A stretch of 64,000 nt of DNA from Meyerozyma guilliermondii (lineage: Eukaryota): assembly GCA_051546255.1 (NCBI GenBank), contig CP128815.1:310001-374000 (forward strand). The letters are read 5' to 3'. Shown piece after piece: positions 26,077 through 35,517 of the stretch. Within the stretch, counting starts at the first letter, position 1. Every line of letters begins with the position of its first letter. The notes below the pieces were generated by a model. It was not told the origin of the DNA and searched no databases. It saw only the letters and a program-made list of their open reading frames with translations. Both the position numbers and the translations under genes were made by a program.

Positions 26077-26783
26077 TCAGCTTTCAACGTCAGAGTACTG
26101 TCCATCGTCATCGTTGTTCATTTCGCCTTCTGTAGCCTTGGTGTCGTGTAGTTGACGTAGTTTGTTCATAACTTTAAGGACGAAAGGTCGCATTTCGTTG
26201 ATTTCAATGAGCGATAAGCCATCGAGACGAATATTGGACTCATTTAGTTCATTCAAACCTTTCTGAGCCTTGGCTAGCCGTATTTCTCTTAGATCCTGAA
26301 TGACAGATCGTAATTCATGGGTTGGATCTTGTAAATCGTCTGCAGCTCGGGCAAGAAAGATCTTCAGTGTGGCTATCCAATTCCATGGTAAGTCACTAAA
26401 TTGTTGCGGGCGTCTGACCTCTTCTTCATACCTTGCCTTCAAAAATGCTAGATTAAGCCAGTCTGGAGGAACTATGTTGCATTTATCTTGAAATTTCAAG
26501 ATCAAGGCGACCCATAGTGGAACCTGTTCTCGTCTCATACCTCGTAAAGCTGGTATTTTGCACTGGGGTTAGTAAAATGAACGAGTATTCAGCCAAAGGA
26601 AGCAGCAGCTACGTTTTCCCCAATCTCAATGCATCTTCATATGCTTCCAGTCGCTCTACTTACTCCGATCAACTCGATTTTTTTCATCAGATACCGAGGC
26701 AAAATTGTGACAAGCTCACTTTCTGCTTGGAAGTTTACCTCCGCAGGAGTTATCGTCTTACGAAGATGAGCAGGTAGAACCAT
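26077..26783 (-). CDS. PSF2: GINS subunit Psf2, two exons (26783-26664 and 26562-26077), 201 aa
   Basis: Exon 1 MVLPAHLRKTITPAEVNFQAESELVTILPRYSMKKIELIG joins in frame to CKIPALRGMRREQVPLWVALILK...PPDWL...IQDLREIR..K...EINEMRPF. The ORF track shows only most of exon 2. Confidence 0.93.
26563..26663 (-). other. Spliceosomal intron in PSF2 (101 nt, phase 0)
   Basis: Donor GTAAGT at 26663, branch point TACTAAC at 26574-26568, acceptor CAG ending at 26563; removal restores the frame. Confidence 0.92.
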
Positions 26784-27052
26784 GTGTAAAGGGATAATGT
26801 GGTGTATTAATAGCTCTGTTGAAGTTTAAAAAAGTCCGCGCAGTGAGTCGCGTTTTAAATAAGTACAGTGCGAGTACATTGCGAAGAGAGTACAGTGAGA
26901 AGAGAAAACAGGCGAGCAGATTACAGTGAGAGGAAACCAAAAAGTAGAGAGAATACTTAGCAATAATATAGATTAGCATATAAGCAATACATAGAAGAAA
27001 TAAATAGCGTCATAGCAAACTTCCGGCGAAGCATCTATAATGCCGGTTCAGT

Positions 27053-29023
27053 TCACTCTTCAATACCCTCGTAACAACTTGCAAGTTGATGCACATCGCC
27101 TCTAAACTTGACAGCAACAGGACGGGGGGTATTGGAAGGTTTCTTATTCACCTCAACCTTCCTCAACCCAGTCTTCCAACTCTTCGCACACTCGTCCTGG
27201 GAACTCACCTTTGGCTTCATGTAGGGATTCTTGCGAAGGCAGTTATCCCATGAAGGCCTCTGTTCCTCTTTGAAGTCCTTGGTGCTTCCTAAAGATGGTC
27301 GATCTAAGTTGGAACTGGTGTTTTTCCTACTAGTCGACCTCAACTGGAAGCTTGTCCCGGCTTCATTGTTGGAGCTTGCCAGCGAGCTCTTGAAGCTACC
27401 CAGATAAACCAGATTGTTGGTCTTTTTGAGCAGCGCCCTCAAGTTTTTGAGCTCATTGGGAACTTCAGGTTTTTTGGGACTGTAGTCCTTCCTTTCAGTC
27501 CTACTCACAAGAAGTCTCCTCTTTTGCTTCAATTCCTTGGGGTCAATGACATACTTCGCAGGACCAGCCGCGATTTCCTGTTTGGCCACAAGCCCACTTT
27601 TGGCTCTCTTCAATTGCTCAGGATCAAACAACAATACTGGGCGAGCACCAGGTCCAAGATTAGGTCCCCTGGCACAAGCACCAAGAATGCTTGAAGGCAA
27701 TGGTGGCGGAGGAGGTGGCGGCGGCGGTGGTGGAGCAGCAGCACCAATTGGGGGAGCAGGAGGAGCAACAGGGGCAGCAGGATGAGTCGAAAAACAAATC
27801 CCCATTTCCTTTCCCACTCTTTCAATAATAGCCTTGAGCTCTGCATGAGGAATTCCTTTGAATTCACGTCTGATCTCATGAGCAAGTTGCTCTTCATAGT
27901 TGAACTTCCGCTTCTCAACTTCGGTCCAGTGAGCTGGAGCTGAAGGGATTGCAGTAGGCTGGGGTATCTCCAGGGACTGGAGACGTACTGCATCCTCAGG
28001 CTCCTCTGAATCATGCTTAGCACCATCAAAGATGCTACTTGCTGAAGAAGAAGCCAGTGACTCCAAGAACACAGGCAGAGGAGAAGGCGAGGCAGTTTCA
28101 GTAGATGGAGCCTGATCAACAGCTTCAGCCACTTCCTTGCCAACTTCCTTAACAACCTCTGTTTGTGTCGAAGATTGCTGCACAACAACCTCTTCCTCAA
28201 CAACGTCAACAACATCCTCAACTTGAGTCAGAGTTTGCTGCACCAAATCACCTTCGGTCTCAGCAATGTCTTTCTCAACAACATCCTCAACTTGAGTCAG
28301 GGTTTGCTGCACCAAATCGTCTTCGGTCTCAGCAATCTCTTCCTCAACAGCGTCCACAATAACATCAGTGTGAGTCAGGGTTTGTTGCACCAAATCGTTT
28401 TCGGTCTCAACAGTCTCTTCCTCAGCAGTGTCGTCCATTTGAGTCAGAATTTGCTGCACCAAATCACCTTCGGTCTCAACAATCTCTTCTTCAACAGCTT
28501 CCTCCTCTTCAGTCAGAATTTGTTGCACCAAATCAGCTTCGGTCTCAACAATCTCTTCCTCAACAACAAGCTCAACATGAGTCAGAATTTGCTGCACCAA
28601 ATTGTCTTCGGTCTCAGCAATCTCTTCCTCAATAACATCATCAACTTGGCTTGAGGTAGGCTGCACCAAATTACCTTCGGTCTCAGCCACCTGTCCACCA
28701 ACATCCTTCTTCGAGCCAACGGGTTTCCCTATCAAGGAACATCCTGCGTCTTTGCAGTCAGAAGGCAACCCAAGCATGCAATAAATACAAGCTTGGTTAC
28801 GGCGGCTCTTCTTTGAAAGGCGTTGAATTGAAAGGCCGACTTGAGGCTCAAGTAACCATCGCGAGTGTCTTGGAGTGCACTCTACTCTTTTCACTTTTAC
28901 CAATTTTGGCGTGGTGGGTTCCAAACTTTCGGGGGTCTCAGCCAGAGAGCGACGGACTGAAGACCGTAGGGAACGGTAGGCGCCAGACAAAAAGTCTTTC
29001 ATAGAAGACTTTTTTCTCGGCAT
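27053..29023 (-). CDS. Orphan repeat protein A: Cys cluster, acidic repeats, polyproline, WH2-like motifs
   Basis: 656 aa ORF; CIYC..CKDAGC; seven ETExDLVQQ repeats; 11 consecutive Pro; LLKKT, LRKN and LRKV motifs; C-terminus paralogous to 30652-33279. Confidence 0.8.
   Translation of the reverse strand: MPRKKSSMKDFLSGAYRSLRSSVRRSLAETPESLEPTTPKLVKVKRVECTPRHSRWLLEPQVGLSIQRLSKKSRRNQACIYCMLGLPSDCKDAGCSLIGKPVGSKKDVGGQVAETEGNLVQPTSSQVDDVIEEEIAETEDNLVQQILTHVELVVEEEIVETEADLVQQILTEEEEAVEEEIVETEGDLVQQILTQMDDTAEEETVETENDLVQQTLTHTDVIVDAVEEEIAETEDDLVQQTLTQVEDVVEKDIAETEGDLVQQTLTQVEDVVDVVEEEVVVQQSSTQTEVVKEVGKEVAEAVDQAPSTETASPSPLPVFLESLASSSASSIFDGAKHDSEEPEDAVRLQSLEIPQPTAIPSAPAHWTEVEKRKFNYEEQLAHEIRREFKGIPHAELKAIIERVGKEMGICFSTHPAAPVAPPAPPIGAAAPPPPPPPPPPPLPSSILGACARGPNLGPGARPVLLFDPEQLKRAKSGLVAKQEIAAGPAKYVIDPKELKQKRRLLVSRTERKDYSPKKPEVPNELKNLRALLKKTNNLVYLGSFKSSLASSNNEAGTSFQLRSTSRKNTSSNLDRPSLGSTKDFKEEQRPSWDNCLRKNPYMKPKVSSQDECAKSWKTGLRKVEVNKKPSNTPRPVAVKFRGDVHQLASCYEGIEE
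28165..28690 (-). repeat. Coding minisatellite, about 69-bp unit (EEEIAETEDDLVQQTSTQVEDVV), 7 copies plus one degenerate copy
   Basis: Repeated tgctgcaccaaatc...cttcggtctca on the + strand at about 69-78 bp spacing. Confidence 0.9.
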
Positions 29024-30651
29024 GTCACTTGTGTTTGTAAAGAAAAACTGTTAGTTTGTGTTCGTGAGGAAGTTTTGCACCCAACACAAATGGATTGCGG
29101 AGTGAACGGGGTACAAATGGAAGCTACAGAAGACACACTCAAGGGTATCTATGGCACACGAGTCACTCGTTTTTTTTGATCACCATACTTCCCCTGGAGG
29201 GACATTAAGAAGCAACAAGTAAGTCGCAAATCAAGACTGGCACTGAGAATCTTTATGAGCATGAAATCAATTGTTCTCGGTTCTTAAGCGTCTTGTTAAC
29301 GATTAGACTGCGTTTGGCCAACATTGAGAAGCCTAAACTGGAGAAACATTTTGTCTTCAAATCGCTTGGTCAAGACATGTCTACAGCCAATGGCTGTGCC
29401 ATGCTTTACCGATTTCCCAAACTTCTGTCACCAACAATGTGGCAATACACCAAGCAAAGGAGAGTCTTGACGACCCAGCCTTTCTTTTGCATAGCAAAGC
29501 TCCCGAACGGGTTTGTTGTGTAGATTTTTAGAGAATAAATTCATGTGGAAATCATCCGTCTCTGAATTTGCTCTGAATTCAACCTAGTCTTGAAAGTACG
29601 AGCAATACTTCTCCTCTTCATCCTTTTTATCTTCGCTTCATTGTCGCTGTGGCTTTGCACCCCCGCGTGGTACGTCCCATCTCCTCTTCATCGTCGCTAT
29701 CTGGAGATTACGGATCCGGAGCATCTGTTTCTGCTGTCACAGTAGGATCTGTCTTTTGCTTTTCGCAAAGAGCTTAGTTGAATGAATCGTTGTTTATGCC
29801 TGTCTGTTGACGAAATCATCAAGAATTGAAAATAAGCCTGATCCACCATCAGAAACTCGATGGTTTCTGTCTTTGTAAATCGTGACCAGCACGTTGCATG
29901 TGAGACGAGTAATATCGCTGTGAGAGATGCGCTTGACCGAACAATTCTAAAAATTGAAATTAGTTTGCGGAACCCAAAAATTATCGTTCCTGCTTGGTCT
30001 TGGATTCCACCCAAAAGCACTAGTACCCCATCTTTGGAACCTCTAGGCCCGGACAATCACCACGTCATTGAATGAGGTTCGTTGAATGAGGTTCGTTGGT
30101 GGATATGGCTAACGCGTATTGAGGTCAATTCGTTTTCTGAGCCAGTGGAAAAGGGCAACTTGTTCAAAAGACGGATGCGGCAAAGCTGAAATTGACGAGT
30201 GTCAATAGCACAAAACATAGCAAAATAGCTGTAATATAACTGCATTTTTGTGACTAGTAAAAAAGGCTGGACTTTTAAGAGCCGAAATCAGTCCCAAATG
30301 GTATTGAAATTAAAGCTTGATCGGGTGCATCAGATAGTTGGAAGCAACAAGAGGACAGTGATAGCCAAGAATGCGAGTCCCCTTGGCCCGGGTATAAGAG
30401 CACTGTTATTTGAATGGAGATCATTGCAATCAATGATTCGCCCCCAAATCTGTTGTTTTGAGAAAATAGGTCCACATCCTGCATCTTAGACAGTATAGAT
30501 AATGGTTGACTAGAGGATGTGCTAGAGTAGAGGTAGTACTAGAGTAGAGGTAGCATTGAATAGAAGTAGTACGACAGATCGGTACAGTAGAGAATTATAT
30601 ACATTTCATCTATTGTAGGAATTAATTCCTTTATAAATATAGCCCGACAGA

Positions 30652-33279
30652 TCAAGTCACTTTGGGCTTTTGGGGAGTATCAACCTCCTTACCAATACCC
30701 TCAAAGCTCCGAGCGAGCTCACGCACTTTTCCTTCAAATTTGTTGACGGGTTTGCGAGAAGCGTTTGAATTCTTCTTAGTAACAGAGATCTTTCTCAAAC
30801 ACTTCTTCCAATTCAGAGTTCCCTCGTAGTCAACGACCTTAACCTTCAACTTTGGAAATCTGTCATCACCAACTTCAGAGTCCAATTGTTCCTCATCCAC
30901 GTCACCAGTCACACCGGTCGAACGCAAGGTGCCCTTCTTGGATGAGTTTCTACTGGAGTGTGTCTTGATGACATCAGCTTTCCCAGAATGTGTCAAAGAC
31001 TGAGTCTTTACATTCTTCGAGCTTTTGGACGAGCCAATTGAACTTCTCAGTGAAGCCGGTCTCTTCCTGGGACAGTTCTCATTGTTGTTGATTTCCATCG
31101 AAGTCAAACGGGTGGAGTGAGATTCCCAAGGCTTCTTCAACTCCTTGCAAACCAGCTCGCAACGAGGGCTCGAAGCATCACCAGCATCAATAGCCTTGGC
31201 GACAACGTCAATAAGGCTCTGTGGTCTAGCCTTGACTTTGCGTTCCAGCTTAGAGACAGCAGACTTCTCTTGAAGCTCATCATACGTCCCATCGTCAATA
31301 GCTTTTGCGACAACGTCAATAAGACTTTGAGGTCTAGCCTTGACCAGCTTTCTCTCAACCAGCTTAGTACCGGTACGAGAATCAGCAGCCTCAGCGTCAG
31401 CATCAATAACCTTTGTGACAGTGTCAACAGGACTTTGTGGTCTAGCTTTGACTTTGCGGACCAGCTTAAAGGCAGCAAACCTCTCTCCAAGATTAGCCTC
31501 AGTGCCATAGTCGATAGCCTTGGCAAGAACATCAATAAGACTTTGTGGCCTAGCCTTGACCAGCTCAGCCTTGATCAGCTTTCTCTCAACCAGTTCGGTA
31601 CCGGTACGAGAATCAGCAATCTCGGCATCAGCATCAACAGCCTTGGCAACAACGCCAATGGGACTCTGTGGTCTAGCCTTGGCCAGCTTTCTCTCAACCA
31701 GTTCAGTACCGGTACGAGAGTCAGCGGTCTCAGCATCACCATCAATAGCCTTTGCGACAACATCAATAAGGCTTTGAGCCTTCACCAGCTCAGCACCAGT
31801 ACAAGCGTCAGTAACATGCTTTTCAAGCTTGAGAGAACTACCAGCATCCGTCGAGCCGGTTATGTTACTCAAGTTCAAATTAGCATCCGAGTTCTTTCTG
31901 GTGCTTTTGGTAATGGTCTTGTTGTTGTCACAAACCACAATCAAACTCTCGGTCTTCTTGCAAACGACAGGCAGCTCGACCTTGGAACGAATCCTCAAAG
32001 GGAGCTCACCATCGCTGCGAAGACTCAAGTCAGACTTGGGAGAGAGACTCAATCCCATTTCCTTGGCATAGTTCTCAACAGCCTCAATGACCTCATCAGC
32101 ACCAACACGAGGTGCACAAACAGATGATGGTTCTGCCTTTTGCTCAACCTTCTTGGGCAAAGGATCTCTCTTTCTGGGTAAAGAGGATGATGGCATAGAC
32201 TCTTTTTTACTTGAAGATGGTCTAACATCAGATCCACGCCTAATTCGGTCGCTTCTCAAAGCAGAACGACGAGCAGCATACTGGGCAAGGAGTCTCGTGA
32301 GCTTCTCGTCAACGGTCTCCTCTCTCGTCATGAGAGGAGCAATCTGCTTAAGGGCAACTGGTTTGAGTCGTTCCAATTCCCGATAACCCCCAGTCGTCGG
32401 ATCGCGAACCAACACCTTGTCTCCATCATAAAAAGATATCAGATCCGAACGCTGCAAGAGATTGATCTTAGCCTGGTTCTTTGACACTCTTGTCTTCGTA
32501 CGGTCCATTGCTAACTTGATGGAGCTGAGAGAAGTCTTCCGTCTGCCATCGTCATGATACTGATTGCGACTCAAGTATTCATGAATATCAAGAAAGATGG
32601 CGGAAGGAGGAGTCATATCCCGTTGGCGACGGCGCACTGCTCCACGTCTTCCAAACCATCTTGAGTATCTCAAACGACGAAGCCTGTACTGAACTCTCAA
32701 TTTGAAATGGTACGTTTTTTGTGCACCAAGCTTTATTGCACCTTTAACGCCATTCAAAAAGTGGGCAACACCAGACAAAGTGGATGAAACACTCTCAGAG
32801 GCTCCTGAGTTGCTCTCTGAACCATCAGCGGCATCAAAAATCGAACTTTCTTTACTCTCACTCAAAGATAATTTCGATTCAGTACGAGAAGCCCTTTTTT
32901 CATATTCCCCAAAATCAACGTACTTCATGGGTGGATTCAGCTCCACATTGTGGACCCGTTGTCTCTTTCCCATGGTACATCTGCACTCCTTCTCAAAACA
33001 GACACAAATATTTGCAATACTGTTGGATTTGAGCATCTTCGCAAGAATAGGTAATCTTGCAGTGGAGCAAACGCTCTTCGCACAAGTTGAAGAAGCAGCT
33101 TCCACTGGCAGAGTTGGTAACGTATGCTCTGAGTCTCCAGAATTTCTGGGTCTCAAAGACATAGGCAGAATAGACCCAGTGGATTTGGCCCGATTTTCCT
33201 TCTCAAAAAACCGTGTACTGTCACTTTTGAGCTTTGTAGAGCTCGATTGGTGGTCAAAATTTGATTTAAACCCACCCAT
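30652..33279 (-). CDS. Orphan repeat protein B: basic N-half, KARPQSLIDVVAKAID repeats, C-terminal motif shared with protein A
   Basis: 875 aa ORF; CVCFEKECRC cluster; six roughly 35-aa repeats; WKKCLRKISVTKK...KFEGKVRELARSFEGI. Confidence 0.8.
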   Translation of the reverse strand: MGGFKSNFDHQSSSTKLKSDSTRFFEKENRAKSTGSILPMSLRPRNSGDSEHTLPTLPVEAASSTCAKSVCSTARLPILAKMLKSNSIANICVCFEKECRCTMGKRQRVHNVELNPPMKYVDFGEYEKRASRTESKLSLSESKESSIFDAADGSESNSGASESVSSTLSGVAHFLNGVKGAIKLGAQKTYHFKLRVQYRLRRLRYSRWFGRRGAVRRRQRDMTPPSAIFLDIHEYLSRNQYHDDGRRKTSLSSIKLAMDRTKTRVSKNQAKINLLQRSDLISFYDGDKVLVRDPTTGGYRELERLKPVALKQIAPLMTREETVDEKLTRLLAQYAARRSALRSDRIRRGSDVRPSSSKKESMPSSSLPRKRDPLPKKVEQKAEPSSVCAPRVGADEVIEAVENYAKEMGLSLSPKSDLSLRSDGELPLRIRSKVELPVVCKKTESLIVVCDNNKTITKSTRKNSDANLNLSNITGSTDAGSSLKLEKHVTDACTGAELVKAQSLIDVVAKAIDGDAETADSRTGTELVERKLAKARPQSPIGVVAKAVDADAEIADSRTGTELVERKLIKAELVKARPQSLIDVLAKAIDYGTEANLGERFAAFKLVRKVKARPQSPVDTVTKVIDADAEAADSRTGTKLVERKLVKARPQSLIDVVAKAIDDGTYDELQEKSAVSKLERKVKARPQSLIDVVAKAIDAGDASSPRCELVCKELKKPWESHSTRLTSMEINNNENCPRKRPASLRSSIGSSKSSKNVKTQSLTHSGKADVIKTHSSRNSSKKGTLRSTGVTGDVDEEQLDSEVGDDRFPKLKVKVVDYEGTLNWKKCLRKISVTKKNSNASRKPVNKFEGKVRELARSFEGIGKEVDTPQKPKVT
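31160..31800 (-). repeat. Coding minisatellite, about 105-bp unit (KARPQSxIDVVAKAID...), 6 copies
   Basis: Repeated tcaatagccttg...aagactttgtggtctagccttgac and ctctcaaccag..agtaccggtacgaga on the + strand. Confidence 0.9.
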
Positions 33280-33606: not shown

Positions 33607-35517
33607 TTATCTGTAACTTAACAACCAATTGAATGTTTCCATGTAAGCCTCTTCTCTCAGCAGCCGATCACGGTCAGTGGCTAACTCCCATGGCATGTGA
33701 CTCCTTATAGTGCCAAAACAATTCAAAAGTCCTGCCATAAGGCCGCCATTAGCGAGTATGTAGGCTTCTTGTGATTTCAGCGTTTCGGCCTTAGTAATTG
33801 TAGTCAACTTCTGAATTGGAGTCAGGCTTGCTAGGCTGCTCGACAGCGGTGAGTGTGCAAGAAAATTATTGACATCTTCTGTCATCCTATAACTCTGTAG
33901 TCGACTGATTACAAAGGGCATGACAATAGTGTCTCTAAAGCTCGCTAGAAGCATATTTTCGGTCAAAATTCGAATCGAATTCTTGATCCCATATGCGTTT
34001 TCGATCAACATCTCGTTGAAATACTTTTGAAGGGGATGGAAAATCGCCAATAACTGAAAACGAACGTTCCTATTGAAATACGTCCATTTAGCTTCAACTT
34101 TTGCCCATTCTTTGCATAGCTTGACGACTTCCGGAAGTAATTCCTCTCTGTTCACTTCAGCATCTTTGTCGACCAGTAAAGTAAAATCAATCTGCTTGCT
34201 AAAATCATTCAGAAAGATCATCATGCACTTTGTAAAAAAGCTTTGTAGTTCAGCATGGGTTTCCCTGAACCGGAAGTCATCGAATTTGTCAGGGACATTA
34301 TCGGTAAGGGACGAAGAGCTAGAAGAGTGCAATTGAGAGGAGATTTTGCGCACCCTTGCGGACCTTGTACTTGGAGATCGCTCTATCGGTTCTGGGGTGG
34401 AGCCATTTCGAGAAATGTTTTTGTAACCTTCAAGAAGTGAGGCGCCTAATTCCTCCACCAGCATACCTAGACATGCATGCTCAGTTCCATTTGAAAGCTT
34501 TTTTGACTGAGATGGTAGGATCAATGGTTTGATAGCATTCAAGAATGAGTTAAAGAGCTTCGCATAATTTCTCGCTTCAGCTACTGGCAACTGAGGGTCA
34601 TCGTCGCTAGCAATTCCCAAACCTACTTCTTGATTGGGTAGCCTGTGTAAACGACTCAGTAAGAATTGATCTGTGGGCGTCATAAGTTTCTTGTGCATGT
34701 CGAATAAAGACGAGTGTTCATTGGCAGATTCAAAGTCATCAAGAGAATAGTTGGGGTCGGTGAATTTGTAAATGATCGCAAAGCTGACATCTGTGATTAC
34801 CGAATTGGAGCTGCTGGAGGAAAGGGTTATGGTTGTACGAGAAGGGACAGTAACAGACTGCTGGGTAATCTGGTCGTCTGTCGAAAGAGACAACAGTTCG
34901 TGAGCCTGCGAATTGCTATGTGATCGGTGAAAGAAGTTGTGAAATGTGGAAGCTGGGGATGACGCAGGATTTTTATTTCCAGAAGATCCAGCTCCTGGAC
35001 TCGCAGCGTCATCGAGCAGCGCCGAACTTCGTATCTTTTTCGGTACCTTTAATCCATGATGGCCGGCCGTGTGAATCGAAAGTTCGGGTTTTTTTGTGGA
35101 TATTGAAAACTTGCTACGGGATTTCTTCCCTAGTTTGATCAATGATGAGGAAGATGGTGACGAATTCATTGTGGTAATTCTGGATACTTTGCTTGAAGGA
35201 GATGTAGTGTTTGCATCTTCACCATCACTTGTCTTATGTGGATCATGTTGTGTTTCTTCTATGTCATTCCCCTTGTTGAGGATACTTGTCATGGACCTGT
35301 TCTTTGTGAACAAGCGGCTGAGGGGGTTATTTGACTTGGTTGTGACAGTACTTATAGTGGAGGTGTCGGACAGATTAGTTGGCTGTTTACGCAAATTGTT
35401 GAAATCGACACTGGAGATCTGTGAAGCTCCAGCTAGGTTACTCCTGTCTACCGCAAACTGTAGGGTGCTGGATGACGAGTTGTTGTCATGGTAATATAAG
35501 GGATTGTTAGATTCCAT
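33607..35517 (-). CDS. BIT61: HbrB-domain TORC2 accessory protein, Bit61/Bit2 (Protor)-like
   Basis: Long Ser-rich disordered N-terminus; C-terminal WTYFNRNVRFQLLAIFHPLQ...LLASFRDTIVMP matches the HbrB pattern (W.yF....l..l.aiF.PL ... lla.FRD.vv.P). Confidence 0.6.
   Translation of the reverse strand: MESNNPLYYHDNNSSSSTLQFAVDRSNLAGASQISSVDFNNLRKQPTNLSDTSTISTVTTKSNNPLSRLFTKNRSMTSILNKGNDIEETQHDPHKTSDGEDANTTSPSSKVSRITTMNSSPSSSSLIKLGKKSRSKFSISTKKPELSIHTAGHHGLKVPKKIRSSALLDDAASPGAGSSGNKNPASSPASTFHNFFHRSHSNSQAHELLSLSTDDQITQQSVTVPSRTTITLSSSSSNSVITDVSFAIIYKFTDPNYSLDDFESANEHSSLFDMHKKLMTPTDQFLLSRLHRLPNQEVGLGIASDDDPQLPVAEARNYAKLFNSFLNAIKPLILPSQSKKLSNGTEHACLGMLVEELGASLLEGYKNISRNGSTPEPIERSPSTRSARVRKISSQLHSSSSSSLTDNVPDKFDDFRFRETHAELQSFFTKCMMIFLNDFSKQIDFTLLVDKDAEVNREELLPEVVKLCKEWAKVEAKWTYFNRNVRFQLLAIFHPLQKYFNEMLIENAYGIKNSIRILTENMLLASFRDTIVMPFVISRLQSYRMTEDVNNFLAHSPLSSSLASLTPIQKLTTITKAETLKSQEAYILANGGLMAGLLNCFGTIRSHMPWELATDRDRLLREEAYMETFNWLLSYR

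Follow-up and report, generated by a model that had tools for sequence, protein, structure and literature searches.

The adjacent genes A and B of the yeast Meyerozyma guilliermondii probably encode disordered scaffolds that are anchored to actin filaments by a shared C-terminal tail, a reading to which we assign a probability of about 60%. By its sequence, the tail matches the SFM, a published nine-residue motif that binds actin filaments, so that both proteins can be regarded as likely candidates for lineage-specific actin-binding proteins. Together with a paralogue on another contig, C, A and B form a small, lineage-restricted yeast family, whose common ancestry was established by comparison of the proteins. 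In C, a stop codon falls on the motif itself.

The A-B locus

The window, as the analysed stretch of 64,000 nucleotides is called here, belongs to the genome of a CTG-Ser yeast (10.66 Mb, 8 contigs) and was read with translation table 12, in which CTG encodes serine. Exact table-12 translations of A and B match NCBI-sourced records letter for letter. Neither protein has a significant Pfam match, and a search of the PDB returned no relative, only one chance hit (E 0.12). In the literature listings searched, which covered orphan and species-specific genes of this yeast, the record names of the paralogue, meiosis, actin and the motif in yeast, the family is not described; for the motif in yeast, the paper that defines the SFM came up alone. 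The features of the locus are collected in Table 1.

Table 1. Features of the A-B locus in window coordinates, with residue numbers in brackets
Feature	Position	Strand	Basis
Flanking gene PSF2, 201 aa, intron 26563-26663	26077..26783	-	Pfam
Gene A, intact ORF, 656 aa, probably disordered, no known family	27053..29023	-	ORF analysis, Pfam, Atlas model pLDDT 0.39
A, SFM-type motif with Tyr at P8 (644-652)	27068..27094	-	V644, Y651
A, stretch containing five L[KR][KRS]x cores (471, 532, 561, 596, 620), WH2-like by inspection only	27155..27637	-	pattern counts versus shuffles
A, run of 11 prolines (431-441)	27701..27733	-	sequence
A, EMG helix (395-412), resembling the family block only weakly	27788..27841	-	10/301 decoys as good
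A, PAP..EK..Y.EQ.L.H block (361-383), common to C and P0071, overlooked in the sequence-only reading	27875..27943	-	E 3e-5; 0/301 decoys
A, SSIFD block (329-333), common to B and P0071, overlooked in the sequence-only reading	28025..28039	-	1/301 decoys as good
A, acidic array, 69-bp (23-aa) units	28186..28687	-	repeat analysis
Decayed copy of the RTT106 3' half, A-B gap	29608..30198	-	80% DNA identity to parent, indels and stops
Gene B, intact ORF, 875 aa, no known family	30652..33279	-	ORF analysis, Pfam
B, exact SFM V-x-x-L-x-x-x-F-E (852-860)	30700..30726	-	V852, F859
B, W-x-x-x-LRKI core (824-831), corresponding to A 616-623	30787..30810	-	A-B alignment
B, array, ~36-aa units, five RPQS sites	31165..31809	-	repeat analysis
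B, EMG helix (396-413), common to C and P0071	32041..32094	-	block comparison
B, SSIFD block (145-149)	32833..32847	-	block comparison
B, CxC-x4-CxC cluster (92-101)	32977..33006	-	sequence
Flanking BIT61-like gene	33607..35517	-	HbrB hit below cut-off, E 0.0034

A and B had been described as lying between PSF2 and BIT61 and as surrounded by unusually long intergenic regions. PSF2 was confirmed by Pfam, while the name BIT61 derives from the sub-threshold HbrB hit. Of the three gaps, only the one between A and B is long (1628 bp, the longest of 33, with a median of 136); the gap between B and BIT61 measures 327 bp and that between PSF2 and A only 269 bp, the latter because PSF2 has an intron. 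This intron comprises 101 nt, and the ORF finder gives just a part of exon 2. The length of the A-B gap is partly explained by the decayed RTT106 fragment inside it, which corresponds to codons about 210-404, fills ~590 bp, is oriented like A and B and contains stops and frameshifts. Its parent gene is located on another contig (G000:C2, L030:1397-2728 (-)), and the fragment is a passenger in the gap. No tRNA genes were found in loci L029 or L030, no decayed family copies in the intergenic gaps searched and no second copy of the 3' flank of A in the genome; Rfam gave a single hit far under its cut-off. Purine-rich, short imperfect repeats lie directly downstream of both stop codons (26865-26940 for A, 30511-30572 for B), and CGCG elements near 26830-26860, beside PSF2, resemble MCB sites.

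RNA contigs cover parts of both genes in all four runs examined, out of 24 listed. In the runs X16, X17 and X18, which stem from two studies, contigs end at 30645-30646, just beyond the stop codon of B, and at 27008, 27015 and 27068 near the stop codon of A, and a contig of X15 continues across the 3' end of A. The four runs consist of contigs and include no DNA run. These ends give at most a weak hint of expression, since DNA carry-over is possible. One X17 contig omits 36 in-frame bases of B (30900-30937) that lack intron ends and probably represent an allele.

Paralogues, relatives and shared blocks

The relationship between A and B had been proposed on the basis of an ungapped C-terminal match of 39 residues, 20 of which are identical, and this match was reproduced. 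The similarity extends over about 100 residues (A554-654 and B764-862; BLASTP E 1e-10, genome-wide E 1e-5), and its score was reached by none of 300 full and none of 300 local shuffles. The repeat arrays are indeed different, A having a 69-bp unit present 6.9 times and B a 108-bp unit, and they vary in size, from 6 to 12 units among 12 A alleles and from 3 to 5 RP[QH]S units across 14 near-identical B alleles. Outside the tail, pairwise similarities between A and B are at chance level. Two of the four features that the sequence-only reading called shared are chance: the LRST motif is unaligned between A and B and replaced in B orthologues, and the N-terminal Cys cluster of A differs in its spacing and does not match the family cluster (90/301 decoys as good). 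The KEMG helix takes an intermediate position. It scores below chance in the pairwise comparison (34 versus a mean null top score of 43) but constitutes a genuine block in B, C and P0071, with a weak counterpart in A (Table 1).

A search with the N-terminal half of B led to paralogue C, a protein of 740 aa encoded on another contig (G000:C6:828257-830479 (+), L013:1257-3479; B versus C, E 5e-24). Thus, A and B are paralogues in tandem, as had been proposed, but they belong to a larger family. C is adjoined by a short-chain dehydrogenase gene and a WD40/RING gene, which are presumably ERG27 and MTC5; upstream of C, just past the stop codon of the neighbouring gene, lies a short tandem repeat of ~21 bp (L013:1007-1090). 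A profile of the A and B tails, run against 1.84 billion representatives, gave four hits, namely the A cluster, the B cluster, the more distant relative P0071 (E 7e-5) and P0072 (E 8e-4), a TPR/ParA protein that was dropped as a false hit. P0071 has 922 aa and carries every shared block as well as the full tail, and its N-terminal half is nearest to C (E 1e-38). With a profile made without A, the A tail scored 46.9 bits versus 4.1 for the best decoy. Block profiles found SSIFD, PAP..EK and EMG in A in the order of P0071, whereas the Cys block was not found in A; the conserved order points to a common scaffold that is partly other than the one first described. A search with the central block of A returned A alone, and a tree of the 58-column module gave no resolution.

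The relatives found are near-identical alleles, three more distant groups of B orthologues and P0071. B orthologues share 74% and 57-60% identity with B, and their frames are open across 827-891 aa at 60-74% identity. No A orthologue beyond the group of 93% identity and above was found among proteins of 360-1148 aa, a length range that could miss shorter or broken forms. Scans of metagenomes found no family locus. P0075, a protein recorded under the name of the basidiomycete Naganishia cerealis, shares 98.5% identity with C, likely owing to contamination or mislabelling rather than transfer.

The N-terminal clusters of the family resemble the Mac1/Cuf1-type Cys repeat, which reads CxC-x4-CxC-x2-C-x2-H. 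C and P0071 have three CxC-x4-CxC clusters each and A has none; unlike in the Mac1/Cuf1 type, the trailing C-x2-H and a DNA-binding domain are absent. Metal binding or palmitoylation may be the role of these clusters in B and C. In addition, B starts with M-G-x-x-x-S (33259-33279 (-)), a possible N-myristoylation signal that is present in 16 of the 18 B-type proteins checked.

The SFM in the tail and a possible second actin contact

The tail bears a likeness to segments of frabin and neurabin that bind actin. It had been singled out as a conserved functional motif; conserved it is, but it matches a motif that has already been published. The SFM is defined as V(P1)xxL(P4)xxxF(P8)E(P9), with Ile or Leu accepted at P1, Tyr accepted at P8 and both positions essential; its helix lies between subdomains 1 and 3 of actin, in their cleft, and binds with affinities of 2-12 uM (PMC13364712). 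Of the 24 family proteins examined, 23 carry the pattern, all 13 B-type proteins and P0071 in its exact form and all nine A-type proteins with Tyr at P8, and it is absent in C. Many of these 23 proteins are near-identical alleles, so that the independent count amounts to five sequences. In these five divergent members, P1, P4, P5 and P9 are invariant and P8 is Phe or Tyr, whereas P2, P3, P6 and P7 vary at the protein level, and 13 of 58 module columns are invariant; the modules of A, B and P0071 are only 37-48% identical. The SFM does not occur in any of the 67 control ORFs (together 30,872 residues), a looser pattern gave six hits in them, and the loose motif arises in 0.3-0.8% of tail shuffles. 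As a whole, the tail is not conserved above other non-array parts of B (42/57 versus 66/87 at the N-terminus, B versus P0020). Order-promoting residues make up 0.21 of the last 150 aa versus 0.34 in the background, which is a proxy for disorder, as is the pLDDT of the Atlas model of A.

By itself, a motif of nine residues is weak evidence: in the scan of the human proteome (PMC13364712), structure filters reduced 539 first-round pattern hits to 59. Beyond the pattern, SFMs are judged there by embedding in disorder (IUPred) with ANCHOR and PSIPRED helix signals, by an AlphaFold-Multimer ipTM of at least 0.6 with actin in ITPKA polarity and by loss of F-actin binding upon P1/P8 mutation. The same source argues that SFMs arise from nothing and names Abp140 as the sole non-animal example. 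Among the SFMs that it lists, SORBS1 and PLEKHG2 resemble B, and DIXDC1, which is validated and has Tyr at P8, ESPN and PLEKHG3 resemble A. As in the SFM proteins described there (Abp140/Lifeact, ITPKA, FGD4, neurabin, SORBS1, DIXDC1 and DENND1C), the motif of A and B lies in a probably disordered region, with anchors kept and spacers free, and its position near the C-terminus is that found in DENND1C; A and B share no homology with these proteins beyond the nine residues and, unlike them, have an additional W-x-x-x-L[KR]K[VI] core upstream.

Read in register, C gives I-x-x-I-x-x-C-stop-E, with the stop exactly at P8, followed by the Glu codon of P9. All 11 C-cluster proteins examined end at this stop (15 are listed, 24 are in the cluster). 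By sequence, the truncation of C therefore falls on the motif, which does not in itself demonstrate binding. Having lost the P8-P9 anchor, C likely no longer binds filaments via the SFM. C has been kept intact without the motif, and thus actin binding would not be the only role of the family.

If the tail acts as proposed, its V-x-x-L-x-x-x-F/Y-E helix would bind like those of Lifeact and ITPKA, in the cleft that separates subdomains 1 and 3 of actin, thereby tethering each protein to actin filaments, with paralogue-specific cargo or functions left to the long disordered bodies. The W-x-x-x-L[KR]K[VI] core, which precedes P1 of the SFM by ~28 residues in A and B, may give a second actin contact. 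L[KR]K[TV]-type cores are found at A 532 and 620, at B 828, in P0019 and in P0071, but not in P0020 and P0021, and the upstream core has decayed to LRNI in P0020.

These cores raise the possibility that binding of actin monomers is the key activity: G-actin would be the ligand of the L[KR]K[VI] cores, A would be a Cobl- or Spire-like nucleator or elongator, and the SFM would be secondary. We consider this unlikely. In its favour, the polyproline run of A directly precedes five cores; A shares this order, with L[KR]K[TV] cores behind polyproline, with WH2 proteins such as Las17, Vrp1, Pan1, Srv2, Cobl and Spire, and the core spacing is the same as that of the WH2 cores in Srv2 and Pan1 of this genome. 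The strict core pattern occurs twice in A versus 0.09 expected (13/2000 shuffles) and the loose one five times versus 0.29 expected (0/2000 shuffles), but the loose pattern was picked after the sequence had been seen, and the internal repeats of A barely exceed chance (9/200 shuffles). Cordon-bleu is the nearest Atlas cluster, but at 0.75 it lies below the lead level of 0.9, as do the other ESM Atlas neighbours (unnamed 0.78, CRBG1 0.76, DUF4592 0.75); CRYBG1 and CRACD, which are absent from the SFM supplements searched (PMC13364712), were left out of account. The WH2 profile PF02205 matches neither A nor B, although it also misses Srv2 of this genome and detects only the Vrp1, Las17 and Pan1 loci, as named from their sequences. 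Judged by this profile, A and B are not WH2 family members, and the presence of canonical WH2 genes elsewhere in the genome indicates that they are not orthologues of these either. In Vrp1, Las17, Pan1 and Srv2, the core follows an amphipathic helix; by inspection, the A/B module has no such helix but K-x-K-V-V at this place. Furthermore, the polyproline run, a likely profilin or SH3 ligand, is absent in B, C and P0071. The polyproline run and the cores with Srv2- and Pan1-like spacing also speak for the filament-anchoring reading, within which this run and the further L[KR] cores of A, a layout like that of profilin-fed WH2 proteins, may recruit profilin-actin or SH3 proteins.

Candidate kinase sites, divergence and the meaning of the family

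Quite doubtful is the proposal that the proteins are fast-evolving sexual-cycle or spore proteins under an Ime2-type kinase and that their conserved helix serves to bind another partner instead of actin. B contains seven RPx[ST] sites versus 0.59 expected (0/2000 shuffles), its orthologues keep 4-8, and its RPQS array fits the core of the Ime2 consensus R-P-X-S/T-R/P/A (PMC7349709); moreover, CTG use is the highest of the 34 window genes. However, five of the seven sites come from one amplified unit, only two fit the +1 rule, and A, C and P0071 have none. Scans of the window for MSE, URS1 and PRE sites revealed nothing special, and MSE-like sites, present in 11 of the 34 window genes, are not enriched and do not occur in B. 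The RPQS sites are candidate kinase sites, and the array may put B under kinase control, which is compatible with actin anchoring rather than exclusive of it.

A and B evolve fast, with their frames kept open. Compared with one related lineage, for which the pairing of records was inferred, A is identical in 106/112 and 352/370 positions (94.6-95.1%) and B in 453/490 and 160/170 (92.4-94.1%), versus 622/636 for BIT61 (97.8%) and 365/366 for ARO4 (99.7%). This divergence, the unstable arrays and the junk RTT106 fragment between the genes would suit near-neutral, weakly expressed ORFs at an insertion-prone site, with the motif match as luck, but such an origin appears very improbable: frames are open at 60% identity, the block order is kept across proteins that are 20-30% identical, and stops and frameshifts, which the adjacent RTT106 fragment has accumulated while still 80% identical in DNA, are lacking in A and B. 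A divergence above that of the flanking genes, few relatives and the lack of Pfam and PDB relatives agree with the earlier proposal of an undescribed, fast-evolving, lineage-specific family. A derivation from a virus or mobile element, which dispersed intronless copies at two loci, each between conserved genes, might suggest, is most improbable of all, as no relative was found among viral contigs, Pfam domains and long terminal or inverted repeats are missing, and the two loci do not match at the DNA level.

It is tempting to go beyond filament anchoring and to speculate that this yeast lineage built its own family of actin regulators from disordered sequence, with a two-part tail of a WH2-like core and an SFM as anchor, with A as a nucleator or elongator that works without formins and Arp2/3 and with C as a natural switch-off by the stop at P8. 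Tandem-WH2 nucleators are not known from budding yeasts, and we hold this extended scenario to be improbable.

Should binding fail, an ordinary lineage-specific family of disordered proteins would remain. If A and B do bind filaments through their tails, the family would provide a compact natural test of SFM gain and loss, as the anchors are kept in two paralogues, where they are paired with a WH2-like core, and a stop occupies P8 in the third. Three hypothetical proteins would thereby become testable with peptides, and a scan of fungal orphan genes for SFMs would be worthwhile.
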